A DNA stretch of 64,000 bases. It comes from a candidate division WWE3 bacterium RAAC2_WWE3_1 (GTDB lineage Bacteria > Patescibacteriota > WWE3 > UBA101185 > UBA10185). Location: NCBI GenBank assembly GCA_000503835.1, contig CP006914.1:657680-721679 (forward strand), in the 5' to 3' direction. Shown one piece after another: positions 6,819 through 63,374 of this stretch (within the stretch, counting starts at the first letter, position 1; every line of letters begins with the position of its first letter). The position numbers and the translations under genes are program-made. Below the pieces are notes generated by a model. It searched no databases, was not told where the DNA came from, and saw only the letters and a program-made list of their open reading frames with translations.

Positions 6819-7411
6819 CTATAAACTCCTTCCAGTTTGACCGCATATACATTCTCGGAGGAGGAAAAAACCGCTTCCTTGATAACCACTTCCGATACTC
6901 CGCCGTCCTTCAGCCAGCTGAGAAACATGCCGGTAATACCGGCGGGTGAACTGCCTTTTACAACAATCTCAAATTTTTCGGGATTAAAATCGACTTTGCT
7001 TAGGCTAAGATCCTGAGAAAGCCTGGACATAATAAAGGAAATCCTGGTGGTCAGCGGCTTTCTGGCGCCGATGGTATTTTTGCTGTAGTTGATCTTACCG
7101 GCGATTTGCCTGGCTTTTTCTTCCACACCTGCGTATTCGTTTATTTTAAATTCCAGGTTTTTCTGCTCGCTGAGAAGGCTGTTGAGAAGGAAAGTCACCA
7201 CCATGTGTGCGGCCAAAAGTCCGGCAAGAGCGACACTAAAAAAAACAATCAACGAGGAGGAAATTTTTACGGTGCTGCCCGCAGTAAACGCTTCGGCACG
7301 TAAAGATTCGGGATTGAAAAATAAAGTGTCGTCCGGTGTATAAATTTCGCCCTTAAGCGTTTTTTCTTCGTTTTCCCGGGGCTTTAGAAAGGGCAGATAT
7401 TTTTCTAGCAT
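6815..7411 (-). CDS. PilN-like type IV pilus assembly protein (bitopic)
   Basis: 198 aa. About 50-aa cytoplasmic N-terminus, one TM, coiled-coil plus periplasmic domain. The 5' 59 nt overlap the rpsT 3' end, so the start is uncertain. Confidence 0.35.
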   Translation of the reverse strand: MLEKYLPFLKPRENEEKTLKGEIYTPDDTLFFNPESLRAEAFTAGSTVKISSSLIVFFSVALAGLLAAHMVVTFLLNSLLSEQKNLEFKINEYAGVEEKARQIAGKINYSKNTIGARKPLTTRISFIMSRLSQDLSLSKVDFNPEKFEIVVKGSSPAGITGMFLSWLKDGGVSEVVIKEAVFSSSENVYAVKLEGVYR

Positions 7412-7649
7412 ACCTAGATTTTAACCTATTTGCCTTGTTTTTATGAATGACTTTTTCCTTTGATGCTTTATCGAGCACTTGCTGAAGAACCTGCATCTGG
7501 TCCTTGACCACTTCCGCACCGTTAGAGGAGGCCAATGAAGCCTTTATACTTTTGATGGAAGACTTGTATTTGTCCTTCCAAAAAATATTGTGTTTTCTTT
7601 TCTTCGCAGAGCCCCTCAGAGCCTTTTTTGCTGATTTAGTATTTGGCAT
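7353..7649 (-). CDS. rpsT: 30S ribosomal protein S20
   Basis: MPNTKSAKKALRGSAKKRKHN... N-terminus and overall K/R-rich helical composition match S20. The ORF track extends to an upstream Met at 7670. Confidence 0.85.
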   Translation of the reverse strand: MPNTKSAKKALRGSAKKRKHNIFWKDKYKSSIKSIKASLASSNGAEVVKDQMQVLQQVLDKASKEKVIHKNKANRLKSRYARKISALSKAPGKRRKNA

Positions 7650-16274: not shown

Positions 16275-16610
16275 TTGTTAATATCCCCGTTTGTTAGTGT
16301 TAGAATATTTCTAATGCCGCGATCAATCACATCTTTGGGAAATTTCGAAGAGACCTCTCCGGAAGTACAAGAGCCCGGAATTGAAATTATTCCTCAAGTA
16401 ACTCCCGAAGTAGAAAAGGGGGGAGAAATGCCTTCTGTAGTCAATATACCGGAAACTGCCGCGCCTCCGATTGTTGATGTAAGCACGCACGAAACTCTAC
16501 CGGACCACCCCGTCACCCCGAAAGATTCCATAACATCTCTTGCGAACGAAGAGGAAAGCCGCTTCAGACAAGAAGTTCAGGAAGAAAAACTGCCCAATGG
16601 ATCAGCTTAA
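16275..16610 (+). CDS. hypothetical Pro/Glu-rich protein
   Basis: 111-aa low-complexity P/E/T-rich ORF. Its 3' end overlaps the VirB4-like gene start. Confidence 0.3.
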   Translation: MLISPFVSVRIFLMPRSITSLGNFEETSPEVQEPGIEIIPQVTPEVEKGGEMPSVVNIPETAAPPIVDVSTHETLPDHPVTPKDSITSLANEEESRFRQEVQEEKLPNGSA

Positions 16611-19041
16611 CAATCTAGATAGCATTAATACAACAGTCGAAAACACTGCGCACACAGCTGAATTTATTGCACCTATCCTTTTCGTCCTCTTCATAGCTCT
16701 TTATGTTTTTGTCGTGTGGAAGAAAAAACAGAACGAGAAAGTATCCCAATACAAGCTGACTTTTTTACAGGTTAAACTTCCCCCCGACAACGAAATAGAG
16801 GTAAAAGCCGCTGAACATATGTTTTCCAACCTGATGGGTTTTCAAAAAAGTTTCCTTCAATCCATATTTACAGAACCTTTTAGGATTTCGTTTGAGATAG
16901 TTTCAAAAGCCGACGGAATAGCATTTTACGTTGTCGCCCCAAATGAAATTGCAACTATAGTAGAAAAACAAATTAACGGAGCTTACCCTACGGCGGAAAT
17001 AGATATAATAAACCCCCATGAAATATGGGATAGGGGCTCTTACACACAGGTAGTGGAATTAAAACTACGCGGACCTTCATACTACCCACTCAAAATTTAT
17101 GAGGATCTGAAAAACGACTCTCTGAGCTCTATTACTTCTGCCATGAGTAAACTGAGCGATGACGAGGTCGTTGCGGTACAGTACGTTATTCAGCCTGCAG
17201 GGGATAACTGGAGACTGGCCGGTAGAAGATTTTGCTCCAGTATCAGACAACGGGCGGCTGATCCGGAAAAAAAGGTAAACATAGACACGTCATTCCTCGA
17301 AGGAATAGAAAAAAAGACCGCACTACCCGGGTTCTATACAAAGATCAGGATCGTCTCCGTGGCTAAAGACAAATTTGCCGCACAGTCCAACGTTCAGAAC
17401 ATGCTCAGCGCCTTCGAACAATTCACAAACATGAACTACAACAAACTTGTAAGGAAAACTATGATTTCGGCCAAAACTCTCATCAAAAATTTTATTTACA
17501 GAAAAATAAAAGTGAAGGATGTATACATACCTGTTGCCGGAATACAGATTTACTCCGATACGTCGGTCCTAAATATCGAAGAGCTTGCGACCGTGTTTCA
17601 CTTCCCGAATAAAAATATTGAGACGCCGAACATTATTTGGCTCACCGCGAGAAAATCTTCGGCCCCGGTCAACCTGCCGACAACCGGCCTTTACCTTGGA
17701 AAGAGTAACTTCAGGGGCGTAGAGAAGCAGATCTTTATGAGCCAGGAAGACAGGGCGCGGCACTTTTACATCATCGGACAAACGGGTACCGGTAAGTCTC
17801 AATTTTTAATGTCGCTTGCATTGCAGGATATCCAAAATGGCGAGGGTGTGGCAATAATAGACCCCCACGGAACTGATGTGGAGGAATTGTTAAAAAAGAT
17901 ACCGCCTTCAAGAAAAGATGATGTTATTCTTTTCGACGCGTCAGACACAGAAAGACCGATGGGTATAAACATGCTGGAAGCAAGGTCGGAAGAAGAGAAA
18001 CATCTGATAATCAACTCTTTCATAGCCCTTCTTTATAAACTTTACGACCCTAACCACCAGGGAATAATGGGGCCTGTTTTGGAGCGAACCGTAAGAAACG
18101 TTATGCTGACCGCGATGTCTGACCCGGACAGCACAATGATTGACGTTATGAGGCTCCTCACGGACTCCAACTACAGCAAAGTATTTATCGAAAGACTCAC
18201 CGACCCGCTGGTGAAAAGGTACTGGATAGACGAGGTCGCCAGCGTTCCGCAGGGAAAAAGGGGTGAAAATATGCAATATTTCACCGCTAAGTTCGACCGT
18301 TTCGTTACTGACAGAACTATGCGAAATATTTTAGGCCAGAAGAAATCCGCGTTTAATTTTGATGATGTTATGGCACAGAAAAAAGTACTTCTCGTCGATC
18401 TGTCAAAAGGAAAAATAGGCGAGGAAAATTCCAACTTTATTGGGTTATTATTGGTACCGAGAATATTATCAGCTGCCCTGAGAAGACATTCTCTATTAAC
18501 CAAGGGGGTCGCTTATCCGGACTTTTATCTCTACGTCGATGAATTTCAAAACTTCGCTACCCCTGACTTCGCGACAATCCTTTCGGAGGCCAGAAAGTAT
18601 AAATTGAACCTTACCGTTGCGCACCAGTTTATTTCCCAGCTCGATGACCAGATCAAAGAAGCCGTGTTCGGCAACGTCGGTACGATGTGTGCTTTCAGGG
18701 TGGGAGCGGAAGATTCGGAATTTCTGGAAAATCAATTTGCCCCTAAATTCACAAAGACCGATCTTATAAACCTATCGATAGGCAACTGCTACGCAAGAAT
18801 GCTTGTGAAAGGACAACCGACCCCTCCTTTCTCTCTGGCTGTAGACTGGAACAAGATAACTTCAACTCCAAAGGACGAGATACTGGCAAGGAACATCAAA
18901 GAAACATGCCGCCTCAAATACGGAGTTCCGGCAGAAGAAGTCGAAGAGTACATAAAACTCCGTGCCGGTTACGAAGAGAGAAAAGAACCGGAAGAGGCGC
19001 CCCTGCCTAAGATTCCTCCTCCCGGCAGAATTCCCTTTTAA
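16597..19041 (+). CDS. VirB4/TrbE-like type IV secretion ATPase (DUF87-type P-loop NTPase)
   Basis: About 815 aa. N-terminal TM helix. Walker A GQTGTGKS near residue 415. Walker B ...LYVDEFQNF and an ...EARKYKLNLTVAHQ motif about 240 aa downstream. This spacing is VirB4-like rather than VirD4-like. Confidence 0.5.
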   Translation: MDQLNNLDSINTTVENTAHTAEFIAPILFVLFIALYVFVVWKKKQNEKVSQYKLTFLQVKLPPDNEIEVKAAEHMFSNLMGFQKSFLQSIFTEPFRISFEIVSKADGIAFYVVAPNEIATIVEKQINGAYPTAEIDIINPHEIWDRGSYTQVVELKLRGPSYYPLKIYEDLKNDSLSSITSAMSKLSDDEVVAVQYVIQPAGDNWRLAGRRFCSSIRQRAADPEKKVNIDTSFLEGIEKKTALPGFYTKIRIVSVAKDKFAAQSNVQNMLSAFEQFTNMNYNKLVRKTMISAKTLIKNFIYRKIKVKDVYIPVAGIQIYSDTSVLNIEELATVFHFPNKNIETPNIIWLTARKSSAPVNLPTTGLYLGKSNFRGVEKQIFMSQEDRARHFYIIGQTGTGKSQFLMSLALQDIQNGEGVAIIDPHGTDVEELLKKIPPSRKDDVILFDASDTERPMGINMLEARSEEEKHLIINSFIALLYKLYDPNHQGIMGPVLERTVRNVMLTAMSDPDSTMIDVMRLLTDSNYSKVFIERLTDPLVKRYWIDEVASVPQGKRGENMQYFTAKFDRFVTDRTMRNILGQKKSAFNFDDVMAQKKVLLVDLSKGKIGEENSNFIGLLLVPRILSAALRRHSLLTKGVAYPDFYLYVDEFQNFATPDFATILSEARKYKLNLTVAHQFISQLDDQIKEAVFGNVGTMCAFRVGAEDSEFLENQFAPKFTKTDLINLSIGNCYARMLVKGQPTPPFSLAVDWNKITSTPKDEILARNIKETCRLKYGVPAEEVEEYIKLRAGYEERKEPEEAPLPKIPPPGRIPF

Positions 19042-28779: not shown

Positions 28780-30093
28780 ATGCGCAACAAGCTCCTATTA
28801 ACTGCTCTTATACTGGTGATTCCTTTCCTTCTTACAGCGTGCACCCTTAAAGATTTGCCGGTTGTCGGTAGATTTTTCGGCGGAGGCGGCGGACTGCCCG
28901 GAGGACCGGTAACTCTGAATGTCTGGGGTCTGTGGGAAAATCCGGAAGTGATGCAGGAATTAATAGCTAAATACAAGGAAACCCATCCCAATGTTGATAT
29001 AAGGTATGACGATAGGAGTATTATGAAAGCTTCCCAGTACAAGGAAACTTTAGTCGGAAGGATCGGACAGCCCGACGTCGCCGACGTATTTTTAGTGCAC
29101 AACACCTGGGTGCCGGAGCTAAGGGGATCTCTCGCACCGGCTCCGTCGAAGACCGTAAACGAAGCGCAGTTTGTTGAAAGATATTATCCGGTAGCGAAAG
29201 ACAGTGCCGTCTTTGAGGGCAACGTGTATGCACTTCCCATGTATTACGACGGAATCGCGCTTGTTTATAATAAAAAACATTTTGAGGAGGAAGGGCAATT
29301 GTCTCCTCCTACCTCCTGGGAGGAATTTAGAAGACTCGCTTTTAACTTAACTAAGAGAGACGAGGACGGGAATGTTACGAGAGCTGGAGCTGCTATGGGT
29401 ACCGCGGACAACATCGATTTCTTTTCCGACATACTTGGAACTTTTTTTGCTCAAGCCGGAGTGGAAGTTCCGAGCGGCCTGGACAGCAAACCTGCAAGAG
29501 ACGCACTGGCCTTCTACGTCCTTTTCAGCAAATCAGACAAGGGGTGGGACAACAGCTTTCCGGAAGCATCTGCGGCGTTCGGACAGGAAAGAGTATCTAT
29601 GATTTTTGTCCCCAGCTGGAACTTGCTGGATATTTTAAAAGCACGTCCCGATCTGCAGATCGGCGTCGCCCCGATTCCTCAGGCGACTCTGGACAGCCCT
29701 GTTTCCTGGGCAAGTTTTTGGATGTATGCGGTTCCGGCGGCCAGCCCGAATAAAGAGGCTGCCTGGGAGTTTATAAACTTTTTAGCCCAGGAAGAGTCTC
29801 AGTCGGCACTTTTTAATGCCGCCGTAAGGTACAGAACCTACGGTGCCCCCTTTAGCTTAGTTTCCCTGAAAGACCAAGTTTCCGCAGGTCCTTACGGAAC
29901 TTATCTCAAACCAATATTAGAAACCGCGACTTACGCGAAGTCCACGCCGTTTGCGTCACGTGCAGGTAATGATATTTATGTTAATGCTCTTAAGGAGGCG
30001 GTGAATTCGGTCCTTACCTCCACCGAGGACATAAAAATTGCCAGTGAGGCCGCGCTTAAAGTAGCAAAATCCAAAATAGTTTCTCCCAAATAG
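28780..30093 (+). CDS. ABC transporter substrate-binding lipoprotein (sugar/solute-binding family 1)
   Basis: Lipobox LLTAC after the signal peptide. VTLNVWGLWENPEV...IAKYKETHPNVDI pattern of family-1 SBPs. Confidence 0.7.
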   Translation: MRNKLLLTALILVIPFLLTACTLKDLPVVGRFFGGGGGLPGGPVTLNVWGLWENPEVMQELIAKYKETHPNVDIRYDDRSIMKASQYKETLVGRIGQPDVADVFLVHNTWVPELRGSLAPAPSKTVNEAQFVERYYPVAKDSAVFEGNVYALPMYYDGIALVYNKKHFEEEGQLSPPTSWEEFRRLAFNLTKRDEDGNVTRAGAAMGTADNIDFFSDILGTFFAQAGVEVPSGLDSKPARDALAFYVLFSKSDKGWDNSFPEASAAFGQERVSMIFVPSWNLLDILKARPDLQIGVAPIPQATLDSPVSWASFWMYAVPAASPNKEAAWEFINFLAQEESQSALFNAAVRYRTYGAPFSLVSLKDQVSAGPYGTYLKPILETATYAKSTPFASRAGNDIYVNALKEAVNSVLTSTEDIKIASEAALKVAKSKIVSPK

Positions 30094-40546: not shown

Positions 40547-41350
40547 ATGTTCTTTGTGAAAAATAATTTCTTAAAAGTGTTGGGCATAGTATTTGTGCTT
40601 TCTCTTTCTATGACAACCACGACCGCCCCCTCTGTGTTTGCTGCTGAGGGTGGGGTGTGCTCGGGGTACACCTTACACAATACATGTGGCGGACAGAAAA
40701 CAGCGGATGGGCTCGAGTGCACTTGTGCGGTGGGGTACCGTTGTTTGGCCCCAAGCCTGTCTTGTTACTGCCAGAAAGATGATACGTGCGGTGTTGCCAC
40801 GGATATTTGTGATGCTGCCCACGAGGGTCAGTGCGGGGTTGCAGGGGGTTGTGGTAAAACAACAACAGTTTGTAAGAAGACGGTTGCAACCGTAAGCGGA
40901 GGCTCTCCGGTATATAACTACGACTGCGTATACGATTACTCTTCTCCGTGTGCATGCGTGTTGGGGCAAACATGCCCTGACGATGGTATCCACCAGTGTC
41001 TTCCTACCGGAGGTTGCTGGGCACCAACACCGACAAGTACAGGAGACTACACTTCAGGAGAATGGGTGTATAACGAACCTGAGTACAAAGGTCCTATAAT
41101 CACGGATATTGCCGGCCTTCTCGCCCCTGTTTTTAAAATCCTTTTCTACGCCGGCATTTTCATTGGAATATTAGGCATTATTTACTCAGGCTATCTGTTA
41201 ATCGCAAGCGAAGGCGACCCCGGAAGGGCAAAAGAAGGCAAAGATCAATTTACCGCAGCCATTTTAGGCACCCTTTTCGTGCTGTTGTCAGTATTAATAC
41301 TGCGGGTTATAATTAACAACATCCTGGGTGTTACCAACTCAGTATTGTAA
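40547..41350 (+). CDS. Cys-rich secreted domain fused to a VirB2/TrbC-like two-helix pilin module
   Basis: Signal peptide, about 130 aa with at least 20 Cys, then a C-terminal module (TM, SEGDPGRAKEGKDQ loop, TM, ...INNILG) that is paralogous to the three downstream small proteins. Confidence 0.5.
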   Translation: MFFVKNNFLKVLGIVFVLSLSMTTTTAPSVFAAEGGVCSGYTLHNTCGGQKTADGLECTCAVGYRCLAPSLSCYCQKDDTCGVATDICDAAHEGQCGVAGGCGKTTTVCKKTVATVSGGSPVYNYDCVYDYSSPCACVLGQTCPDDGIHQCLPTGGCWAPTPTSTGDYTSGEWVYNEPEYKGPIITDIAGLLAPVFKILFYAGIFIGILGIIYSGYLLIASEGDPGRAKEGKDQFTAAILGTLFVLLSVLILRVIINNILGVTNSVL

Positions 41351-41390
41351 CTGGTTTTTTTGAGGGAGGTGTAGAAACTAAATAATTAAT

Positions 41391-41717
41391 ATGAACTTAT
41401 TATCTTTGTTAGAATCAAAGGTTTACGCGGCTGCTGCTCCTGTCGATAAAATAGAAGGTATTCCGGTTAGTAGCGTTAACGAACTCGTTACAGTTATAAC
41501 AAACATCCTTATTATTGTTGGAGTAGCTGTTGTCGTAATCTTTTTGGCCATGGGGTTTATTAAGTACATTACTTCAGGAGGAGACAAGAACGCTGTAGAT
41601 TCCGCGCAGAAGACACTTACCTACGCGGTCATCGGAGGAGTCGGGCTGCTTATAGTTTATGGGTTAAGAACGCTGCTATTGAACTTGCTGAATGCCCAGT
41701 CTCTTGAGGGCTATTAA
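41391..41717 (+). CDS. VirB2/TrbC-like pilin paralog
   Basis: 108 aa. TM, TSGGDKNAVDSAQKT, TM, LLLNLLN. Confidence 0.5.
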   Translation: MNLLSLLESKVYAAAAPVDKIEGIPVSSVNELVTVITNILIIVGVAVVVIFLAMGFIKYITSGGDKNAVDSAQKTLTYAVIGGVGLLIVYGLRTLLLNLLNAQSLEGY

Positions 41718-52911: not shown

Positions 52912-53300
52912 GGGGATGCACAGGATTTGATTGAGTCCGATTTCGTGCAGTCGCAAGCAGGGGAGCTGAACCCTTATATTTAGCAAAACCATAAATGCCG
53001 ATAAAGACGCATTTGTAGGCGTACCAGCAATGGCCGCCGTAGCAGCTTAATTTATTAACGCTGCGGATCCCGTTTCTTTTGCCCGGAAGGGTTTACGGGG
53101 TCTAATAAATCCGGGAAGAGGTCATATCAGCAATAGCCCTGTTGATACACCGGGGATGAAAAATCCAAAGATCTTAGCTTGCGGTAGGGCAGAAAAGGTT
53201 CTTCAAGCACCCGGCTCTATCTAAGATAAGCTTGGATAAGTTTGTAGAAGCTGCATGAGAAGTTCTCAAGACGGGGGTTCGATTCCCCCCATCTCCACCA
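52912..53300 (+). ncRNA. ssrA: transfer-messenger RNA (tmRNA, SsrA)
   Basis: 5' GGGGATG pairs with 3' CATCTCC(A)CCA (G3-U wobble). Canonical T-arm GGGGGTTCGATTCCCCC. Internal tag ORF ending ...GCA GCT TAA (AMAAVAA*) at 52997-53050. Confidence 0.8.
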
Positions 53301-53465
53301 TGAAATTTTGAAAAGCAACAAGTATATTCGGGTATGCTTCGTATGTCGAAATCCGTTTGTGTTGCCTGGTACATAAGTCATAGGCTGTTATAAAAGCCAA
53401 AAGTCCTCCTATACACTATAATGCTGTATTTTCTCTGCATCACGATGTATCATAATCATTGCATT

Positions 53466-54953
53466 ATGATGCAGATAGAGTTAGATAACATTTTAGATAC
53501 TGTAAAGAAGCTAAACCCGTGGTTTAAGACTGCGGAAGTCCCTTCTAAATTCTTAAAACCATATGTTCGAGAAGAGTTGAGCATCCTAAAGGATACAATG
53601 CAAAACAATGAGCTAGCCACGCTTCTTATTGGTGGCAGAAGAGTTGGAAAAAGCGTGTTGATGTATCAACTTATTGATTCTTTAATTAGGTCGGGGGTAG
53701 ATCCTAAGAAAATACTTTTTGTCCAAGGCGATAACACCATTTTGAGAGAAAACATTTTGGATAAAAATATTTTAAGTGCGGTCATAAAGACTTATGAGAA
53801 GTATATTCTTGATGATGACTTATCTTCTGTTGAAGACACAGTCTATATTTTTCTTGACGAAGCACAGGCACTGCCTAATTGGGATGCCGAGGTTAAAAAT
53901 CACATAGACTTGAAGTACCCAATAAAATTTCTTATTTCTGGTTCCTCCAGTACTAAATTGAGGCAAGGAATTCAGAATCCATTAGTAGGTAGGGTTCACG
54001 TTACAATTTTGTCCCCTTTCAGTTTCCGTGACTTTATTGGATATGAGTCTAGTACCAATGCACTCGATATCCCTTTAAGGGAAATAGACGAGTTGCGAGA
54101 TGAATTCCATGAGTTACTTAAAGCACCGAATATGATTAAGATACAGGAAATTGTAAATAACTTAACACACGTTAAAAACTCATCAGCGTTAGTAAATTTG
54201 TTTAAAGATTATGCTTTATACGGTGGGTTTCCTTATGTAGTTGAGAATAAGGATAAAGAGGATGTTAATAAATACTTACGCGATATATTGCAAATGACTT
54301 TTTCAAAAGATGTTTTGCAGGAAGAGCAAATAAGGGAACCTTTAGCGTTTGAAAGGTTGATGGTAAATATATGTATGAATATAAGTGGTGTATTTAAGTT
54401 AAACTCACTTGCTGAAAAGATTGGTCTTAAAGATGAGAGGACGGTTAGAAGATACATAGATTACTATGTGGACTCACATTATGCTTTTGTCAGCTTGCCT
54501 TTTTCGTTTACAAATAAGCAGGAAACTATAAAGTCAAACAAAAAGATCTACTCTATAGATTCAGGTGTAGTCAATACTCTCTTGTTTAAAAACCAAAAGG
54601 ATTTAGAGAAGGATACAGCGTACATGGGTGTAATAGCTGAGAATATAGTTCATAACGCATTGTTAAGATTTAAACAATGCGCAAGTGGAAATATATATGA
54701 TAGCATTCCTCATTGGAATAATACAAAAACACATCGAGAGATAGATTTTGTTTTTGAAACAGACGGTCAGATTTATCCCGTTGAAGTTAAAAATAAGGAT
54801 ACAATCCGAGAGGAAGAGTTGTTAGAACTGGACTCGTTTTTAACAAGAAAAGAGCTGTCGGGAGTTGGTTTTGTAGTTACCAGTTCATTATTTGAGAAAC
54901 GTGGTACTAATATGTTATTAGTTCCCACACCCATTTTTTCCTTACTCCTGTAA
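53466..54953 (+). CDS. AAA+ ATPase with DUF4143-type C-terminal domain
   Basis: Walker A LLIGGRRVGKSVLM, Walker B IFLDEAQ. Architecture common to the archaeal-ATPase/DUF4143 family. Visibly AT-richer than its neighbours. Confidence 0.7.
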   Translation: MMQIELDNILDTVKKLNPWFKTAEVPSKFLKPYVREELSILKDTMQNNELATLLIGGRRVGKSVLMYQLIDSLIRSGVDPKKILFVQGDNTILRENILDKNILSAVIKTYEKYILDDDLSSVEDTVYIFLDEAQALPNWDAEVKNHIDLKYPIKFLISGSSSTKLRQGIQNPLVGRVHVTILSPFSFRDFIGYESSTNALDIPLREIDELRDEFHELLKAPNMIKIQEIVNNLTHVKNSSALVNLFKDYALYGGFPYVVENKDKEDVNKYLRDILQMTFSKDVLQEEQIREPLAFERLMVNICMNISGVFKLNSLAEKIGLKDERTVRRYIDYYVDSHYAFVSLPFSFTNKQETIKSNKKIYSIDSGVVNTLLFKNQKDLEKDTAYMGVIAENIVHNALLRFKQCASGNIYDSIPHWNNTKTHREIDFVFETDGQIYPVEVKNKDTIREEELLELDSFLTRKELSGVGFVVTSSLFEKRGTNMLLVPTPIFSLLL

Positions 54954-57989: not shown

Positions 57990-58065
57990 GCACCCGTAGT
58001 TCAGAGGATAGAACGCAGCGTTGCGGACGCTGAAGTCGGGGGTTCGAGTCCCTCCGGGTGCGCCA
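57990..58065 (+). tRNA. tRNA-Arg (anticodon GCG)
   Basis: Acceptor GCACCCG/CGGGTGC, D-arm GTTC..GAAC, anticodon stem CAGCG/CGCTG with loop TTGCGGA, T-arm GGGGGTTCGAGTCCCTC, CCA encoded. Confidence 0.8.
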
Positions 58066-58222
58066 TGAAATTTCGTAAGTACCCAAAGGATGCTTACGAA
58101 ATTTTATTGTTGTACTTGAAGACTCGAATGGCGCAGGCACGGCGGTGCCGAGCCGGGGCCGGGCGGATTGCCAGCAGGCGAGAACGCGTGGCCGAGTCCC
58201 TCCGGGTGCGCCATGGAATTTC
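58046..58222. repeat. 29-bp direct repeat of the tRNA-Arg 3' end (28/29 identical), copies at 58046-58074 and 58194-58222
   Basis: GAGTCCCTCCGGGTGCGCCATGAAATTTC versus GAGTCCCTCCGGGTGCGCCATGGAATTTC. att-site-like duplication flanking about 120 bp. Confidence 0.8.
58068..58108 (+). terminator. intrinsic terminator-like hairpin after tRNA-Arg
   Basis: Perfect 12-bp inverted repeat AAATTTCGTAAG / CTTACGAAATTT with 13-nt loop, followed by a TTTTATTGTTG tract. Confidence 0.5.
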
Positions 58223-58241
58223 AGCATGCTACTATAGAGGT

Positions 58242-59057
58242 ATGAAGCATATTCTTTATCATGAGAACAATCTAAAGCACCCGTATGCTCCTCAGGAAGA
58301 TTCCTATCTCCATTCTACAAAAGAAGGTATTTTTGTAGTTGCAGATGGTGTAACGCACGACCCCACAGACCCAACTCTATATCCAATGCCTTCAGATTCT
58401 TATGAGGTTGCACGAATTGTATGTAATGAAGTAATTAAATACCTTGAAGGAAAAGAATTTACAACCGACTCAATAAAGTCGGCTTATTCGGAAGCAAACA
58501 AAAAAGTTGCCGAATATAATTTACATTCTCCTTTATATGCAGAAAGAAAAAATAATGGATTTACTATTGGAGCAGCTGCTGCATCGGTAGTTTGGATAAA
58601 AGAAAATAAACTACTTTATGGAGTTTTAGATGATTGTTTTATTTCTGTATTTGGAGACGATCTTGTTGACCACCCGATGTTGAAATCCTACGTTGAGATG
58701 TCGGCTAAATACCTCGATGGTAATTTTGATTGGGGAAAAATAGGAACCAGAAGACATTGGCGGGAGAATATCAGAAATCACAAAGTAGTTATTGAAGGTA
58801 AGGAGTATGGTTATGGTGTCATTGATGGTAGGGAAGGTTTTGACCAATATCTCCAAACAGGTGAGGTAGCCCTCAACAAAGGAGATTTAGTTTGTGTTTA
58901 TACTGACGGGTTTATTAAAATGTTTCAAGACAGGGAATTCGCCAAAGAGTTGAAGGAAAAGCCGTTTACAGCTGAAACATATAAATTTATCTCTGAAACA
59001 GCAATAAAACTGGAACAATATAAAGAAAAGACCGGTTACTTTATAAAAAATGATTAA
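58242..59057 (+). CDS. hypothetical protein (weak PP2C/SpoIIE-like features)
   Basis: Start chosen at MKHILYHE, downstream of the second repeat copy. GIFVVADGVTHD and GVLDDCFISVFGDD segments are loosely phosphatase-like. Confidence 0.4.
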   Translation: MKHILYHENNLKHPYAPQEDSYLHSTKEGIFVVADGVTHDPTDPTLYPMPSDSYEVARIVCNEVIKYLEGKEFTTDSIKSAYSEANKKVAEYNLHSPLYAERKNNGFTIGAAAASVVWIKENKLLYGVLDDCFISVFGDDLVDHPMLKSYVEMSAKYLDGNFDWGKIGTRRHWRENIRNHKVVIEGKEYGYGVIDGREGFDQYLQTGEVALNKGDLVCVYTDGFIKMFQDREFAKELKEKPFTAETYKFISETAIKLEQYKEKTGYFIKND

Positions 59058-59183
59058 CACACCGAGCTTTTGTGTAGAGATTTAATTTCTGAACTGATGT
59101 GCTGCGGTGCGTTAGAAATTTCGGGGGTATTTCCAACGCTGTTTATTCCCAAACCAACCCAATTGCCTTAAACTAATAAATAC

Positions 59184-60890
59184 ATGAACCTGTTCACTGA
59201 ACTTAGTGTGATCATTGTTGTAGCGGCTGCCCTCGCCGGTGTAATGCGCGTTCTCAAACAGCCCATCGTCATCGGGTACGTTCTTACAGGCATAATCCTC
59301 GGTCCGCACGTTTTGGGTTTGTTGAGCTCGAATGAATCCATGTCGGCCTTTTCCCAGATGGGTATCGCAATCCTGCTTTTCATTGTCGGACTAAACCTTA
59401 ACCCAAAAGAACTTAAAAGTTTCGGTACCACTTCTTTCTTAATCGGATTCCTTCAGGTTTTATTCACATCATTTTTCGGATTTTTGATTTCGCGGCTTTT
59501 AAATTTTCCGGTTATAGAAAGTTTGTATATCGGAATAGCGCTATCTTTTAGTAGTACGATTGTCGTTTTAAAATTTCTCTCAGACAAAAAGGATCTCGAA
59601 AAACTGTACGGCCGTCTTACAATCGGCGTCTTGCTCCTTCAGGACATTTTAGCCGCCGTAGCTTTAATCGCGGTTTCGGGAATAGCGGGAGGCAGCGAAG
59701 GACTCTCCTCGTTTTTACTGCTAATAGTTAAGGGTCTCGCAGTGATTCTGGTAATCTCACTCGTAAGCTACTACGCAATGCCGGCGCTAGGTGCGTTTTT
59801 TGCCCGCTCCCAAGAGTATCTCTTCATTTTTTCACTGGCCTGGGGATTCGGATTAGCTACCCTTTTTGGGATACTCGGATTTTCGGTTGAAATCGGCGCC
59901 CTAATTGCCGGAGTTTCTTTATCAATCTTGCCGTACAGCTCGGAAATAAGTTCGCGTCTAAAACCTTTGCGTGACTTTTTCATCGTTATGTTTTTCATCT
60001 CCCTCGGATATCAGATTTCCTTTGATACTTTGTCGGGAATGTTTGTGCCCCTTTCAATTTTGGCGGCTTTTGTTCTATTCGGGAAACCGTTAATTCTTGG
60101 AATTTTGGTAGAAGTTTTCGGCTATTCCAAAAAGACAGCCTTCCTAACCGGAGTGAGTCTAGCCCAAATCAGCGAATTTTCGATGATATTTGCCCTCCTG
60201 GGTTTAAAGGTCGGGCACGTCTCCGGAGAGGTCGTAAGTGTAATTACAATTCTGGGATTTTTAAGCATAGCCCTGTCGTCCTACCTAATTGTGCATGCTG
60301 AGAAAATTTACCCGCTTTTTGTGCCGATCTTAAAAATATTTGAAAGCAGGGCGCCCGCCGTTGAAGATGCCCCCGACCGTGTCTACGACACCGTATTGTT
60401 CGGTTGCAACAGGGCAGGTTACGATTTCGTGAAAATATTTAAGGAATTTGGGACGCAGTTTTTGGCGATCGATTTTGATCCCGACATTATTAAGGAATTA
60501 ACAGGCAAGGGAATAAATTGCATTTACGGCGATGCCGAGGACAGCGAATTTCTGGAGGAAATTTCTATTGGAAGGGCAAAGATAGTTATTTCTACCGTTC
60601 CCGAGTACGAAACAAACCACTTTCTATTATCAAAAATTCGCTCAGAGAATGCGGATTCTCTTGTGCTGCTCCTTTCATACAATATCGACGACGCAATAAA
60701 ACTTTATGAAAATGGTGCTACTTATGTTATTTTGCCCCACTTTATAGGCGGAGAATTTGCAGTCAAAATAATTAGTGATGCCGGATTTGACGTTGCAAAA
60801 TTAAACGCCAAGCGCGAAGAGCACGTGAATTATCTTAAGGAAAGAAAAGCTCTAGGACACGCGCACCCGGTGTGGAATCACAATAAGTAG
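59184..60890 (+). CDS. Kef-type (CPA2) cation:proton antiporter with C-terminal RCK/TrkA-N domain
   Basis: N-terminus VLKQPIVIGYVLTGIILGPHVLG typical of KefB/KefC. 12 TM helices. C-terminal Rossmann VLFGCNRAGYDFVK. Confidence 0.8.
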   Translation: MNLFTELSVIIVVAAALAGVMRVLKQPIVIGYVLTGIILGPHVLGLLSSNESMSAFSQMGIAILLFIVGLNLNPKELKSFGTTSFLIGFLQVLFTSFFGFLISRLLNFPVIESLYIGIALSFSSTIVVLKFLSDKKDLEKLYGRLTIGVLLLQDILAAVALIAVSGIAGGSEGLSSFLLLIVKGLAVILVISLVSYYAMPALGAFFARSQEYLFIFSLAWGFGLATLFGILGFSVEIGALIAGVSLSILPYSSEISSRLKPLRDFFIVMFFISLGYQISFDTLSGMFVPLSILAAFVLFGKPLILGILVEVFGYSKKTAFLTGVSLAQISEFSMIFALLGLKVGHVSGEVVSVITILGFLSIALSSYLIVHAEKIYPLFVPILKIFESRAPAVEDAPDRVYDTVLFGCNRAGYDFVKIFKEFGTQFLAIDFDPDIIKELTGKGINCIYGDAEDSEFLEEISIGRAKIVISTVPEYETNHFLLSKIRSENADSLVLLLSYNIDDAIKLYENGATYVILPHFIGGEFAVKIISDAGFDVAKLNAKREEHVNYLKERKALGHAHPVWNHNK

Positions 60891-60920
60891 AGTTGGATTT
60901 TTCGGCGGTATAAGGTACTA

Positions 60921-60948
60921 TTGGCACGTTGCCTCAGTTGTTTATGCT
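60921..60948 (+). promoter_or_regulatory. candidate promoter TTGGCA-N16-TATGCT for tRNA-Ala
   Basis: -10 ends 6 nt before the mature tRNA 5' end. Confidence 0.35.
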
Positions 60949-60954
60949 GTATGG

Positions 60955-61030
60955 GGGCCGTTAGCTCAGTTGGTAGAGCGCCGCATTCGCATTGCGGAGA
61001 TCAGCGGTTCGACTCCGCTACGGTCCACCA
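60955..61030 (+). tRNA. tRNA-Ala (anticodon CGC)
   Basis: Acceptor GGGCCGT/ACGGTCC with the G3:U70 Ala identity pair. Anticodon loop TTCGCAT. T-arm AGCGGTTCGACTCCGCT. CCA encoded. Confidence 0.85.
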
Positions 61031-61178
61031 GAAAAAGTAGCGGTAGCCTGGCTACCGATAGTTTTTCTGTGAATCTAAAGCGAAGAACTACGAAGTGGTT
61101 CGTCATTGCGGAGCAATGTATGAGGAAGCGCAGCGAACGAAGTGAGTGAGCAAGCTCTTACTCCGCTACGGTCCACCA
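61012..61178. repeat. 19-bp perfect direct repeat of the tRNA-Ala 3' end at 61012-61030 and 61160-61178
   Basis: ACTCCGCTACGGTCCACCA occurs twice, 148 bp apart. The second copy lies 26 nt upstream of the 61205 NUDIX gene ATG. Confidence 0.85.
61036..61067 (+). terminator. terminator-like hairpin plus T-run after tRNA-Ala
   Basis: TAGCGGTAGC-CTG-GCTACCGATA followed by GTTTTTCTG. Confidence 0.45.
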
Positions 61179-61204
61179 AAAACTTTTAGTACTAGAAAAA
61201 TATT

Positions 61205-61645
61205 ATGAAAATCGGCGAAGATTTTATAGGTATTGCAACACCCTTCTACTGTAACGATGGAAAAGGCAATTTCTTGCTTCATAAGAGGAGTAAAAAGTGT
61301 AGAGACGAAAATGGTAATTGGGACCCGGGTTCCGGAAAGTTAGATTTTGGAGTAAGTATCGAAGAGAACGTTTTGAAAGAGGTTGCCGAAGAATACGGAT
61401 GTAAGGGGGAGATTCAGGAGCGGCTTCCGGCGCACGATGTTTTTCGCGAGCACGGTGGGGTAAAAACCCATTGGATATCAATTCCATTTTTCATAAAAGT
61501 CAACCCAAAAGAGGTTAGGAATAACGAACCGGATAAAATAGATGAGATTGGTTGGTTCAGATTAGATAATCTGCCAAAACCGCTCCATACTGGTTTTCAA
61601 TTCAGCTTCTCTAAGTTTCGGGATTATTTTGAGAAATACAAGTAA
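61205..61645 (+). CDS. NUDIX hydrolase
   Basis: NUDIX box G-x5-E-x7-REVxEExG: PGSGKLDFGVSIEENVLKEVAEEYG. Confidence 0.6.
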   Translation: MKIGEDFIGIATPFYCNDGKGNFLLHKRSKKCRDENGNWDPGSGKLDFGVSIEENVLKEVAEEYGCKGEIQERLPAHDVFREHGGVKTHWISIPFFIKVNPKEVRNNEPDKIDEIGWFRLDNLPKPLHTGFQFSFSKFRDYFEKYK

Positions 61646-61662
61646 CTGGTTCCAAAAATAGG

Positions 61663-61971
61663 TTAGACGAAATAAGCTTTGGAGACACTAAAATCTTCCC
61701 CGACCTCAACCCCATCTTCTTCCAGAAGTCTTTTCTGTTCTAGCGCCGGAATTTCGTTGTGTTTTATACTTATATAACCTTTCGCGTTGATAATTCTCCA
61801 CCAGGGAGTATCTTTTTCATCGCCCCATCGGTTGAGTACCCACCCGACTTCTCTTGCCCCTCTGGGTTTTCCGGCAAAAAGGGCGATTTGACCGTAGCTT
61901 GCAACCCGGCCTTTTGGGATTCTCCGTACCTCTTCTAATACCTTATCTTTAAAGCTCGTTTGTGCCTCCAT
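61663..61971 (-). CDS. alkyltransferase-like (Atl) / MGMT-family DNA-binding protein lacking the active-site Cys
   Basis: RVASYGQIA...GKPRGAREVG...PWWRIIN. The MGMT C-terminal HTH-like domain is present but PCHR is replaced by PWWR. Confidence 0.55.
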   Translation of the reverse strand: MEAQTSFKDKVLEEVRRIPKGRVASYGQIALFAGKPRGAREVGWVLNRWGDEKDTPWWRIINAKGYISIKHNEIPALEQKRLLEEDGVEVGEDFSVSKAYFV

Positions 61972-62013
61972 GATGCCTTTATTCTACCAATGCTGTATAC
62001 TTTATTCGACTTT

Positions 62014-62104
62014 GGAGGGATACCGAAGTGGTCATACCGGGCTGGTCTCGAAAACCAAGCGTGGGGCAACTCACACGTGGGTTCGAATCCCACTCCCTCC
62101 GCCA
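62014..62104 (+). tRNA. tRNA-Ser (anticodon CGA)
   Basis: Acceptor GGAGGGA/TCCCTCC, anticodon loop CTCGAAA on a CTGGT/ACCAA stem (top pair mismatched), long variable arm, T-arm GTGGGTTCGAATCCCAC, G73, CCA encoded. Confidence 0.7.
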
Positions 62105-62241
62105 GCAAAAAGTGGCCGGCGTTCACCGCCGGATATTTTTTGCTTGAGGGAAGCTGATTGAACAGCGAAGCAGGTTCGAATAACACATTTCTGCGAACGA
62201 AGTGAGTGGAAATGCTTTACGAAGTAAAACTCCCTCCGCCA
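62092..62241. repeat. 13-bp direct repeat of the tRNA-Ser(CGA) 3' end at 62092-62104 and 62229-62241
   Basis: ACTCCCTCCGCCA occurs twice, 137 bp apart. First member of a downstream repeat series. Confidence 0.75.
62116..62141 (+). terminator. terminator-like GC hairpin plus T-run after tRNA-Ser(CGA)
   Basis: CCGGCG-TTCAC-CGCCGG followed by ATATTTTTTG. Confidence 0.45.
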
Positions 62242-62720: not shown

Positions 62721-62767
62721 GAAAAAAGTTCCAAGTACGTCCAACTCCCTCCGCCATGTTAGAATGT
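62721..62767. repeat. intergenic repeat unit R2 containing a tRNA-Ser 3'-end-like core (AACTCCCTCCGCCATGT)
   Basis: GAAAAAAGTTCCAAGTACGTCCAACTCCCTCCGCCATGTTAGAATGT. About 85% identical to R3 at 63328-63374. Confidence 0.7.
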
Positions 62768-63327: not shown

Positions 63328-63374
63328 AGAAAAAGCTCCAAGTACGTCCCATGCCCTCCGCCAAGGTAGAATGT
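63328..63374. repeat. intergenic repeat unit R3 (degenerate copy of R2)
   Basis: GAGAAAAAGCTCCAAGTACGTCCCATGCCCTCCGCCAAGGTAGAATGT. Confidence 0.65.

Follow-up and report, generated by a model that had tools for sequence, protein, structure and literature searches.

The window, a 64,000-nt stretch from a candidate division WWE3 bacterium, contains three intact tRNA genes (Arg, Ala and Ser) that are each followed by a duplicate of their own 3' end (Table 1). A repeat search over the whole window revealed only these three pairs of direct repeats of at least 13 nt within 300 nt. The same arrangement was found in seven independent assemblies of the species (L001-L004 and L006-L008), so the duplicates reported in the preliminary description are real and not the assembly artefact it had warned of. 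In the older assembly L005 (GCA_000999505.1), about 103-106 bp are deleted inside the tRNA-Arg and tRNA-Ser genes, and the tmRNA locus shows a similar shortfall with no tmRNA detected; these deletions look like local misassemblies. The earlier description had also placed a terminator-like hairpin between each tRNA and its copy and an ORF start soon after the copy. Both were confirmed, the hairpins by a terminator scan (Ala, Ser) and by folding (Arg), and the ORF starts at 58243, 61205 and 62305, which are 21, 23 and 64 nt past the Arg, Ala and Ser copies, respectively. The hairpin 3' of tRNA-Arg, GAAATTTCG...CGAAATTT, is also present in L013 and L014. The search it had proposed for more tRNA 3'-end duplicates yielded copies it had not mentioned, at 62744-62756, 63354-63363, about 59106-59122 and about 61646-61661, together with a fourth case just beyond the window end, where tRNA-Ser(GGA) (L001:20353-20442) has a copy at L001:20643-20655.

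Table 1. Features of the tRNA-linked loci, in window coordinates.
Feature	Position	Strand	Details	Evidence
tRNA-Arg(GCG)	57990..58065	+	intact, CCA encoded	ARAGORN; Rfam tRNA, 65.4 bits
Terminator-like hairpin	58067..58104	+	15 bp, then U-rich tract; between tRNA-Arg and element	folding
E_Arg, canonical three-way-junction element	58105..58217	+	P1a 58120-58125; P2/P3 58130-58155; long hairpin H2 58156-58193; P1b 58194-58199	covariance model R1, 78.9 bits, E = 4e-33
Arg direct repeat	58045-58074 and 58193-58222		30 nt, 1 mismatch, spacing 148	
Second tRNA-Arg 3' copy	58193..58222	+	T-loop C56/G57 to CCA, plus 8 nt of flank	repeat search, family D1
PP2C-like cassette	58223..59122	+	ORF 58243-59057; ends in degenerate third copy GGTGCGTTAGAAATTTC, 59106-59122	Pfam PP2C_2, weak match
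tRNA-Ala(CGC)	60955..61030	+	intact	ARAGORN and Rfam
Intrinsic-terminator-like hairpin	61041..61057	+	after tRNA-Ala	terminator scan
E_Ala, reduced element	61068..61159	+	P1a GCGGAG (61108-61113) pairs with CUCCGC (61161-61166)	
Ala direct repeat	61012-61034 and 61160-61182		19 nt exact or 23 nt with 1 mismatch, spacing 148	
Second tRNA-Ala 3' copy	61160..61182	+	19 nt exact	repeat search, family D2
NUDIX cassette, 146 aa	61205..61661	+	ends in degenerate copy CTGGTTCCAAAAATAG, 61646-61661	Pfam NUDIX
tRNA-Ser(CGA)	62014..62104	+	intact	ARAGORN and Rfam
Intrinsic-terminator-like hairpin	62116..62132	+	after tRNA-Ser	terminator scan
E_SerCGA, reduced cloverleaf-like element	62146..62241	+	closing helix GAGGGA (62146-62151) with UCCCUC in the copy	
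Ser direct repeat	62092-62104 and 62229-62241		13 nt exact, spacing 137	
NUDIX cassette, 130 aa	62305..62756	+	boundary site AAAAAAGTTCCAAGTACGTCC-A-ACTCCCTCCGCCA, 62722-62756	
His_Phos_1 cassette, 181 aa	62772..63363	+	second boundary site GCTCCAAGTACGTCC-CATG-CCCTCCGCCA, 63335-63363	

The spacer behind tRNA-Arg folds into a three-way junction of roughly 110 nt (z = -4.65 for the whole spacer), in which P1b is made by the first 6 nt of the tRNA 3' copy and an acceptor-like pairing joins 58112-58118 with 58204-58210. This element carries the search motif at 58130-58158 and is the sole strong match to covariance model R1 in the window, and its orthologues in L012, L013 and L014 show compensatory changes. 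Neither E_Ala nor E_SerCGA matched the model. E_Ala lacks the long hairpin H2 and retains the GCAG segment, a GA-rich hairpin CGAACGAAGUGAG (61134-61146) and the UGAG segment; its hairpin is nearly identical to the CGAAC-GAAG-GUGAG P3 hairpin of the canonical L012 tmRNA and L074 members, with one G fewer, and related variants occur in L048, L081 and L114. The closing helix of E_SerCGA, formed with the 13-nt tRNA-end copy, surrounds three hairpins including a GA-rich one (62186-62214), and the element is kept in L012 with 3 double-sided compensatory pairs. In addition, the Ala and Ser spacers have an exact 16-mer in common, GCGAACGAAGTGAGTG, which had gone unmentioned before. Judged by the common hairpin and the architecture, and not by the model, both appear to be reduced relatives of the canonical family.

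A motif scan of 185,579 species genomes revealed at least 119 loci, and among the matches listed all but 3 chance ones belong to Patescibacteria of many classes, placing the fold at 116 or more loci in this phylum, including Saccharibacteria, Paceibacteria, Berkelbacteria, Woesebacteria and WWE3. The covariance model gave 136 matches in 100 loci, often several per 8 kb. The fold consists of a closing helix P1, a P2-P3 stem with tandem G.A pairs, and the long hairpin H2, whose loop is CAGCAG and which has a conserved bulged A; positions fixed in the search pattern are invariant by ascertainment. One strand of P1 belongs to the element and is antisense to T-loop positions 54-62, the other consists of the six leading bases of the tRNA duplicate, and the helix covaries with T-loop positions 57, 59 and 60. 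The predicted helices are paired in 89.4% of cells. Shuffles give 70.2%, with none of 500 attaining the real figure, and slid controls give 35-45%. Changes on both sides of a pair occur in 668 cells, compared with 187 after shuffling; at the centre of P2, for example, the pair is CG in 72 copies, AU in 21, GC in 16 and UA in 7. G.U pairs outnumber A.C pairs five to one (256 versus 50), and therefore the fold lies on the tRNA-sense strand. P1b is retained in about 10 older copies in which the acceptor part has decayed. Copies inside one genome are diverged and not near-identical, giving no sign of the recent burst expected of an active MITE. Head-to-tail tandem copies occur in L054, L097 and L131, and in some variants the closing helix can pair with an upstream or a downstream partner. 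No Rfam 15 family matched the element, ribozyme families not even at E = 10 on short inputs, no match was found in 2.9 million viral contigs, and a literature search found no paper on these tRNA-linked structured elements.

The linkage to tRNA genes is strict and oriented. A same-strand tRNA or tmRNA gene ends within 130 nt upstream in 76 of 121 copies and starts within 130 nt downstream in 18, compared with 0 upstream and 1 downstream on the opposite strand. The tail is identical to the tRNA from position 57 through the 3' end in 33 of 72 cases, covering more than 15 tRNA types, and the duplicates often run 5-35 nt past the tRNA end into the flank. The distance from the tRNA end to the element clusters at 41-56 and 72-94 nt. 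In about a third of the copies, which sit in tRNA-tRNA spacers, the tRNA-end duplicate is missing and the trailer of the tRNA has just a short repeat such as CACAAA; spacer copies were found in L020, L046, L078, L083, L099, L104 and L113. Many copies have an intrinsic terminator between tRNA and module, which speaks against their being transcribed efficiently.

Comparison of syntenic tRNAs in related WWE3 genomes, which the preliminary description had proposed as a check, revealed both empty and occupied sites, modules having been gained and lost between species. The Arg module is present in four species and absent from one, the Ala and Ser-GGA modules are confined to the source species, and the tmRNA module is found in L012 only. 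The ancestral flank is the sequence that follows the second copy, and the genes directly downstream of each tRNA differ in every relative. Insertion at tRNA 3' ends, as originally suggested, is thus supported by the empty and occupied sites and by the ancestral flank. The same description had held that conserved intervening sequence at all tRNAs would speak for a structural role rather than integration; such conservation was found in part, so pure integration is insufficient and a function for the fold is likely.

Four single-gene cassettes, bounded by further degenerate tRNA-end copies and younger than the modules, lie behind the elements. The PP2C-like cassette sits directly behind the older Arg copy; in L012, which is free of it, the second copy joins directly to the sequence after 59122 of the window. 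Similarly, GAAAAAGTAG after tRNA-Ala in L012 abuts the sequence that follows 61661. The 130 aa NUDIX cassette, also missing from L012, ends in a third exact Ser copy, and its boundary motif repeats at the end of the His_Phos_1 cassette and three times in L015 beside two different tRNA-Ser genes; this conserved motif plus a tRNA-Ser end delimits cassettes in both the window and L015. The integrase search found no integrase or recombinase encoded in the modules, near the elements or anywhere in the window, and of about 120 loci only 5 have a large serine recombinase homologue in their neighbourhood. Kilobase-size cargo separates tRNA and element in L013, L033, L038, L076 and L103. In L013, L038 and L076 this cargo is delimited by an additional tRNA-end copy of its own ahead of the terminator and the element, indicating that the element pre-existed as a separate unit and that the recombinase carried in L076 need not be the module's.

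Based on these results, we propose, with a probability of roughly 55%, that each duplicate is the right-hand boundary of a non-autonomous module of about 90-150 bp that targets tRNAs, has a functional fold and is spread through the candidate phyla radiation (CPR), with cassettes docking later at the tRNA-end copies. The module would insert into a tRNA or tmRNA gene, with T-loop positions 56/57 as the commonest point of entry. Everything from the T-loop to the 3' end, in some cases together with flank, would end up in two copies, one completing the tRNA and the other coming to lie behind the module, so that the gene stays intact. A recombinase supplied in trans might place both modules and cassettes. 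Besides the absence of a recombinase from the modules and the window, the divergence of copies within a genome, the intervening terminators and the copies that have no tRNA-end duplicate, two points count against this proposal: as an intermediate, a DNA circle of 100-150 bp is implausible on physical grounds, and two of the three window elements (Ala and Ser-CGA) are tied to the family by hairpin and architecture only.

The element might instead be a resident of tRNA operons, a host-encoded small RNA or a processing or regulatory element of tRNA precursors, in which P1a can switch between two partners, the real tRNA (through 9 bp at the T-loop, or through the 3' end and trailer) and the downstream copy, and so influence how the tRNA folds, how its 3' end matures or whether read-through occurs. 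The tRNA-end copy would then be part of the RNA design and not an insertion footprint. The same-strand linkage fits this well, as do the G.U bias, tandem G.A pairs and tetraloops, the antisense match of P1a and the junction to 54-62, reaching beyond the duplicate start, and the empty viral search; the copies within a genome are diverged yet structure-preserving, like old functional genes, and the Arg element is kept in four species with compensatory changes. Copies in tRNA-tRNA spacers must be co-transcribed, and the duplicate-less ones there suit a resident RNA as well as they suit insertion. However, only a minority of tRNAs carry the element, and close relatives differ in whether a particular tRNA has it, so it is dispensable for any given tRNA. 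The extension of duplicates into the flank points to duplication at the DNA level, the acceptor part of the copy decays, and terminators often separate tRNA and element. We consider a resident RNA rather unlikely. A self-cleaving or self-ligating ribozyme that trims trailers or releases a fragment from tRNA transcripts is a still weaker candidate, and a poor one. The compact three-way junction with conserved junction nucleotides, the tandem copies and the two-sided closing-helix partner, read as permutations of one catalytic junction, would agree with it, and small ribozymes are known from similar variable regions; but the Rfam ribozyme families are unmatched, a cleavage site cannot be inferred, and a short direct repeat flanking P1a on both sides explains the apparent permutation equally.

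Improbable, too, is a folded single-stranded DNA attachment site similar to integron attC or the CTX-phage attP hairpin, where P1 would rebuild the duplex T-loop site and a recombinase would pair it with the chromosomal tRNA gene. Because P1a reads as the reverse complement of the T-loop that is targeted, P1 amounts to a duplex replica of the target; folding is strand-specific with G.T tolerated, and the inserted DNA has both arms at the same end, as in CTX prophages. The cassette arrays beside the elements resemble integron arrays, and the folded strand would be the lagging-strand template if the tRNAs are co-oriented with replication. On the other hand, the neighbourhood yielded no recombinase of the integron or Xer type, features such as the bulged A, the tandem G.A pairs and the strong conservation of the core sequence are more suggestive of RNA, duplicate-less spacer copies are hard to explain, and the window cassettes are bounded by a different, unstructured motif. 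Of the two alternatives in the preliminary description, scars of degraded elements and a recurring miniature element targeting tRNAs, the latter proved right. Integrase-mediated insertion classically leaves partial tRNA repeats behind, as in tycheposon islands, and the kilobase-size cargo at five loci would suit an attR remnant of a larger prophage or island whose interior was deleted. Nevertheless, the supposedly functionless DNA between tRNA and copy is a covarying family of regular size, conserved across the CPR, and the extra copies bounding the cargo mark the element as pre-existing. Covariation, the regular tRNA-element distance and the keeping of P1b while the acceptor part decays contradict plain scars, to which we give hardly any credence.

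Similar to tRNA-anchored islands (Prochlorococcus tycheposons and classic att sites in the T-loop or 3' end), the present system regenerates the tRNA or tmRNA gene, leaves a partial tRNA copy, stacks successive insertions with more degenerate copies and carries cargo that varies between close relatives. The present units, however, measure 0.1-0.9 kb and have no integrase or replication genes; the commonest has no protein gene but a conserved three-way-junction fold, and one sequence family uses more than 15 tRNA types. Integron cassettes with attC and the CTX-phage attP share the single-gene arrays and a strand-specific structured element whose stem rebuilds the recombination-site duplex and varies in sequence with pairing kept, whereas here neither IntI or Xer recombinases nor R'/R'' boxes were found, anchoring is to a tRNA gene, the core sequence, in contrast to attC, shows high conservation across phyla, and window cassettes end at a short unstructured motif plus a tRNA-Ser end. 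Correia/NEMIS, BOX, RUP, ERIC, REP and Rickettsia palindromic elements are likewise short, multi-copy and protein-less, with inverted-repeat-closed folds co-transcribed with neighbouring genes. In contrast to these, the present element lies strictly at tRNA/tmRNA genes in one orientation, its duplication is variable in length and restores the tRNA instead of being a fixed short target duplication, its copies are diverged with compensatory evolution, and half of its closing helix comes from the target. Guide-bearing RNAs (group II intron EBS-IBS, IS200/IS605 guide-target, TnpB omega RNA and IS110 bridge RNA) also combine a target-complementary segment spanning the insertion point with a structured scaffold followed by target-identical sequence, yet no reverse transcriptase, TnpA/TnpB or IS110 recombinase is associated here, none of their Rfam models matches, and the target gene is duplicated, not split.

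At least the tRNA-Arg duplicate marks a small conserved folded insertion module. Within the proposed insertion of modules into tRNA genes, the window would contain one canonical element (Arg) and two reduced relatives (Ala and Ser-CGA). Cassettes would use both the spare copy of the tRNA end and the tRNA's real end as attachment sites, the PP2C-like, two NUDIX and phosphatase cassettes having been added by site-specific-type recombination that left a degenerate tRNA-end copy each time. Selection would preserve the three-way junction and leave the acceptor part of the duplicate free to decay. The fold probably acts as RNA, as several copies lie inside tRNA-tRNA spacers, and it might keep the displaced tRNA fragment sequestered, tag transcripts or take part in their processing, or provide a recognition structure for the attachment site.

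The RNA genes called in the window are a tmRNA and four tRNA genes, and three of the four tRNAs have their own 3' end repeated 137-148 nt downstream (see the table of features). A hairpin is located downstream of each of the three, and an ORF starts 21-64 nt past each 3'-end copy. The duplicated ends, the intervening hairpin and the ORF start after the second copy, all reported in the preliminary description, were found again at the three tRNAs. These are the only direct repeats of at least 13 nt within 300 nt in the entire 64 kb; in this genome, no 3'-end copy stands near tRNA-Ser(GCT) or the tmRNA. CCATGAAATTT follows the tmRNA as well as tRNA-Arg. The host belongs to candidate division WWE3 (Katanobacteria, CPR), and an identical arrangement is present in seven independent assemblies of the same species (JGI, ENA, NCBI), so that an assembly artefact, the objection raised beforehand, is not the case. 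The oldest assembly, GCA_000999505.1 of 2015 (L005, LCGD01000004.1), lacks about 103-106 bp inside each of tRNA-Arg and tRNA-Ser(CGA), with breakpoints that do not lie at repeats, and its tmRNA locus displays a similar shortfall, no tmRNA being detected there by ARAGORN. Because the gaps would destroy these genes and seven other assemblies are intact, local misassembly of a public genome is the probable cause.

The Ala and Ser spacers have an exact 16-mer in common, GCGAACGAAGTGAGTG. A fourth case was found at tRNA-Ser(GGA), 5.8 kb past the window end, with the copy 213 nt downstream, and its spacer has both the GC-rich block found in the Arg spacer and the block common to Ala and Ser. Since it holds blocks of both kinds, we are dealing with one recurring element and not with three unrelated scars, as the suggestion of a recurring miniature element had anticipated. 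A coding role of the Ala/Ser motif was rejected on inspection, because a 1-nt indel in the Ser-GGA copy breaks the frames.

Loci of relatives were fetched around the orthologues of the Kef-type transporter located between tRNA-Arg and tRNA-Ala. The syntenic WWE3 loci L012, L013, L014 and L015, with Kef identities of 76, 77, 73 and 64%, respectively, contain the same six RNA genes as the window in conserved order. Across these genomes, the Arg element is present in the window species, L012, L013 and L014 and absent from L015; the Ser-CGA element occurs in the window species and L012, the Ala and Ser-GGA elements in the window species only, and a tmRNA element in L012 only. At the empty sites the sequence after the tRNA is the one that follows the second copy in the occupied genome (Ser-GGA and Ala versus L012); an empty-site allele at Ala would read GGTTCGACTCCGCTACGGTCCACCAAAAACTTTTAG. 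Relatives with empty sites lacking the second copy, the comparison proposed at the outset, were indeed seen for Ser-GGA and Ala (L012) and for Arg (L015). Compensatory changes distinguish the four Arg elements from one another: GGCAC/GUGCC, GUCAC/GUGAC and GGCGC/GCGCC are the variants of one hairpin. The protein gene directly downstream of each of these tRNAs is different in every relative. The gene after the tmRNA likewise changes from relative to relative without exception, encoding an AAA_14/DUF4143 ATPase in the window and GT87 or DCD elsewhere. The tmRNAs of L012 and of the motif-scan locus L133 carry a canonical three-way-junction element plus a 21-nt copy of the tmRNA 3' end. Two further inserts were observed in the relatives. 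In L013, a 2.2-kb insert between tRNA-Arg and the element has terminal inverted repeats of about 70 bp (GCAGAAGCGAAACTAAACGCTCGGGCGGGCAAAAAGGAAGGGGGTTGGGGGGAAGGAATTTTTGCCCGCCC) and contains an HTH gene and two ORFs, 317 and 154 aa long, that match nothing in Pfam; it could be a distinct mobile element. In L014, the 3' end of a large serine recombinase gene overlaps the tRNA-Ala 3' end; next come a rolling-circle replication gene (REP_ORF2-G2P) and other ORFs. This insert, which by its gene content looks like an integrated plasmid or phage-like element, occupies the tRNA-Ala site where the window has a mini-element.

A pattern that represents the conserved portion of the Arg, Ser-GGA and tmRNA elements, CGAGNNGGGGYCG-N9-11-CAGCAG-N9-11-GTGRCC, was scanned against one genome per species (185,579 species) and matched at least 119 loci. 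Among the matches listed, all but three are from Patescibacteria, the three being obvious chance matches in coding DNA, and the lineages include Saccharibacteria, many Paceibacteria/Parcubacteria, Minisyncoccia, Berkelbacteria, Woesebacteria and WWE3. The same pattern had zero matches in 2.9 million viral contigs of IMG/VR, where WWE3-specific and general core patterns also gave nothing or unrelated coding matches, and a viral origin was rejected. The covariance model R1, built from an alignment of 124 copies, detected 136 copies in 100 loci among the matches listed, about 35 more than the pattern, and the 8-kb blocks often hold several. Within the window R1 detects the Arg element alone; the Ser-GGA element outside it scores 86.5 bits. 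No earlier description of the element was found in full-text searches of the literature, where only the tycheposon turned up as an analogue.

The alignment of 124 copies, again among the matches listed, supports a three-way junction closed by the helix P1. P2-P3 consists of a short helix, a GGAG/CGA internal loop (CGAG in the family definition), in which tandem G.A pairs are possible, and a variable hairpin; it is followed by a GGGG junction and by the long hairpin H2, which has CAGCAG in its loop and a conserved bulged A. Among the matches listed, 89.4% of the cells of the 28-pair structure are paired versus 70.2% in column shuffles, none of 500 shuffles reaches the observed pairing, and sliding the partners by 1-3 columns leaves 35-45% paired. 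Double-sided changes occur in 668 cells of the matches listed versus 187 in shuffles; the middle P2 pair, for example, is CG in 72 copies, AU in 21, GC in 16 and UA in 7. Positions fixed by the pattern are invariant by ascertainment, and the covariation sits in the free positions. G.U pairs outnumber A.C pairs in the matches listed (256 versus 50), indicating that the fold belongs to one strand, the tRNA-sense strand. Directly 5' of the core stands a strand with the consensus GGAnUCGAA; it is antisense to T-loop positions 54-62 of the adjoining tRNA and covaries with tRNA positions 57, 59 and 60. Therefore, P1 is half element and half tRNA copy. In about ten copies of the matches listed, the six P1 bases persist although the acceptor portion of the duplicate has decayed; it is the fold, and not the tRNA-like tail, that is under selection. 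Acceptor-stem mimicry was rejected as a general feature: it is present in Arg and Ser-CGA, Ala has it out of register, and in compact members (L078 and L045, for example) it cannot form. Beside the core, a GCGAAUAC(U/G)UGGAGC hairpin loop recurs on the 5' side (L022, L024, L049, L077, L096, L134 and others), where it caps a helix between tRNA and core; the AGCGAAGC loops of the window Ala and Ser spacers are related to it, and it may be a separate conserved module. An optional insert, GAAAGUGUACUCAC, stands between the core and the tRNA-derived tail, directly after GTGACC, in L017, L027, L031, L033, L058 and L118, and L043, L067, L106 and the Ser-GGA element have a second, longer domain, in which a CGAGCGAAGCGAG-type hairpin lies within the duplicated tRNA piece.

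The association with tRNA genes is strand-specific. Among the matches listed, 76 of 121 copies have a same-strand tRNA or tmRNA ending at most 130 nt upstream and 18 have one starting at most 130 nt downstream; on the opposite strand there is none within that distance upstream and one downstream. Some copies have no visible partner since they are near the edges of the fixed 8-kb blocks. In 33 of the 72 listed copies with an upstream tRNA, the stretch past H2 matches that tRNA exactly from position 57 to the last base, and in 38 of the 72 the identity is at least 85%; the copied tails come from more than 15 tRNA types in the listed matches. The duplicate sometimes runs 5 to more than 30 nt into the downstream tRNA flank. 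The tRNA-end duplicate is missing from 24 copies in the listed matches: the element begins about 10 nt past the tRNA, its 5' strand pairs with the last tRNA bases plus trailer, and just a short repeat (such as CACAAA) follows H2. A few copies precede the tRNA, with a duplicate of its first 11-25 nt in front of them. When a tail completes a tRNA, a complete tRNA is always upstream as well; a tRNA intron without duplication was rejected because no split-only tRNA was found in the 121 listed copies. A decayed tandem tRNA copy was likewise rejected, as the spacers cannot be aligned to the tRNA body and the same core stands at different tRNAs. By hand tally of the listed matches (L016-L134), the long-variable-arm tRNAs (Leu, Ser, Tyr) make up about 40% of the element-adjoining tRNAs, roughly twice their share of a tRNA set as generally known, and Leu alone about a quarter.

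The Arg element, with its fold and same-strand tRNA, is a canonical member of the family. The Ala and Ser-CGA spacers gave no R1 match even with filters off at E = 10. In Ala, GCGGAG pairs with CUCCGC of the tRNA copy, and a GCAG / GA-rich hairpin / UGAG segment is retained without H2; the GA-rich hairpin is nearly identical to P3 of the canonical L012 tmRNA element and of L074, with related variants in L048, L081 and L114. In Ser-CGA, an acceptor-like helix of six pairs, closed by the copy, encloses three hairpins, one of them GA-rich and differing from L012 by three double-sided compensatory pairs. Because of the parts in common with the family (a GA-rich P3-type hairpin and a tRNA-derived closing helix) and their position, we infer that Ala and Ser-CGA are reduced relatives.

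Features of the window and of related loci (window positions unless a locus is named)
Feature	Position	Remark
tmRNA	52912-53300	
Region after tmRNA	53300-54953	with AAA_14/DUF4143 ATPase gene
tRNA-Arg(GCG)	57990-58065	3'-end copy 30 nt, one mismatch
tRNA-Ala(CGC)	60955-61030	3'-end copy 19 nt, exact
tRNA-Ser(CGA)	62014-62104	3'-end copy 13 nt, exact
Arg element, R1 match	58105-58217	78.9 bits, E = 4e-33
Ala element, GCGGAG strand	61108-61113	
PP2C-like cassette bounds	58205-58222; 59106-59122	GGTGCGCCATGGAATTTC; degenerate GGTGCGTTAGAAATTTC
End of NUDIX cassette after tRNA-Ala	61646-61661	degenerate CTGGTTCCAAAAATAG
Ser cassette ends	62722-62756; 63329-63363	AAAAAAG(T/C)TCCAAGTACGTCC, few bases, tRNA-Ser end CCCTCCGCCA
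Weaker boundary-motif match	29427-29441 (-)	
VirB4/TraG-like ATPase (DUF87, TraG-D_C) and three T4SS_pilin-like genes	16540-19041; 40547-41700	
dnaA	23861-25330	
Segments missing in L005	about 58064-58169; about 62044-62146	
Ser-GGA case	L001:20353-20655	same species
L015 boundary sites	6878-6906; 7475-7503; 17142-17170	beside two different tRNA-Ser genes
tmRNA element, L012	6576-6724	
tmRNA element, L133	346-456	
2.2-kb insert	L013:7090-9190	
Plasmid- or phage-like insert	L014:11841-18400	

Single-gene cassettes dock at the tRNA-end copies. Comparison of the window with L012 revealed a PP2C-like gene inserted directly behind the older Arg copy, and the flanks of the tRNA-Ala NUDIX cassette are joined in L012. 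Two cassettes, NUDIX (130 aa) and His_Phos_1, follow tRNA-Ser(CGA). Their boundary motif, AAAAAAGTTCCAAGTACGTCC plus 1-5 nt plus CCCTCCGCCA, is conserved between the window and L015 despite 64% Kef identity; at each window site, TGTNNGAAT or GGTAGAATGT comes next. The motif appears to be a conserved site of attachment for a family of cassettes. The kb-size cargo in L013, L038 and L076 is bounded by the tRNA end and an extra degenerate copy of its own, which lies in front of the terminator plus element; since the cargo has its own copy, the element was already present before it. The dnaA gene places the window near the replication origin; genes for a VirB4/TraG-like ATPase and T4SS-pilin-like proteins were also observed (see the table).

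None of the called genes in the window and flank encodes an integrase, the gene sought after the preliminary description, and none has a Pfam recombinase domain. Among the matches listed, 5 of about 120 loci have a large serine recombinase homologue nearby, which does not clearly belong to the module; these homologues were rejected as the element's own enzyme because they occur at five loci only and the cargo of L013, L038 and L076 has its separate tRNA-end copy. A consistently adjacent protein was rejected as well, all-against-all clustering of 1,050 neighbouring ORFs giving housekeeping families only. Like a classical integration into a tRNA gene (attL/attR), the element is flanked by a repeat of the tRNA 3' segment with the tRNA regenerated, and relatives have empty sites at which the flank beyond the distal copy directly adjoins the tRNA; unlike it, no tyrosine or serine recombinase was found encoded inside. 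The att-type insertion first proposed therefore stands in the repeat, the regenerated tRNA and the empty sites, but not in a recombinase within the element. The P1 arms are inverted repeats as in a MITE, but one arm is target-derived, the duplication varies in length between about 6 nt and more than 35 nt instead of being fixed, and stems within one genome differ where near-identical copies would be expected (L026/L036, L028/L040, L029/L076, L122); identical copies in one genome are tandem pairs only. In contrast to an integron with IntI and attC R''/R' boxes, no integrase was found in the window and flank, and the cassette boundary AAAAAAGTTCCAAGTACGTCC..CCCTCCGCCA is without an attC-like dyad.

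Taken together, the elements have a conserved, strand-specific fold that is tied to tRNAs, half built from the tRNA copy, and gained and lost between species. We propose, with a probability of about 0.55, that the elements are non-autonomous insertion modules with a functional fold, each regenerating the tRNA into which it inserts. The main rival would be a resident RNA of tRNA operons with the tRNA copy as part of its design. The copies inside tRNA-tRNA spacers (L020, L046, L078, L083, L099, L104, L113) must be transcribed together with those tRNAs, as such an RNA would be; the sites empty in relatives are those of an insertion, and we consider the resident RNA rather unlikely. A folded single-stranded DNA attachment site is less probable still. 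A ribozyme with putative self-cleavage appears distinctly improbable: on 12-48 kb inputs searched at E up to 1, no Rfam 15 family overlapped the elements, and on 170-200 nt inputs at E up to 10 the matches were only chance-level and far below the gathering score, the unmatched families including tRNA, group II intron domains V-VI, hammerhead, twister, twister-sister, hatchet, pistol, HDV-like, HEARO, IS605-orfB and T-box. A likeness to group II intron domains V/VI (P2/P3 plus H2, with the bulged A 9 nt from the 3' end) was dropped, as there is no Rfam group II match and the bulge is on the wrong strand. Plain scars of lost elements, the other early proposal, are contradicted by the conservation of the spacer DNA and are very improbable.

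A wider reading of the insertion module, which we hold only tentatively, is an undescribed CPR-wide functional fold in which the strand antisense to the T-loop sets the site. It would be a miniature mobile element guided by nucleic acid, retargeted to any tRNA by changing 6-9 bases, or alternatively a new tRNA-linked processing or ribozyme RNA, and the spare tRNA end would found an integron-like cassette platform without an adjacent integrase. CPR bacteria represent a large share of bacterial diversity, with tiny genomes and few recognised mobile elements, and to our knowledge their gene gain and loss and their non-coding RNAs are poorly understood. The element accounts for the partial tRNA copies that recur beside tRNA genes in CPR genomes, and model R1 can be used to flag such sites in metagenome bins. 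A folded, conserved element in many copies, tied to tRNAs across the whole radiation, would represent a new RNA or folded-DNA family for annotation, it would mark hot spots for the entry of small gene cassettes into CPR genomes, and it may point to a recombination or tRNA-processing mechanism without an adjacent protein gene.
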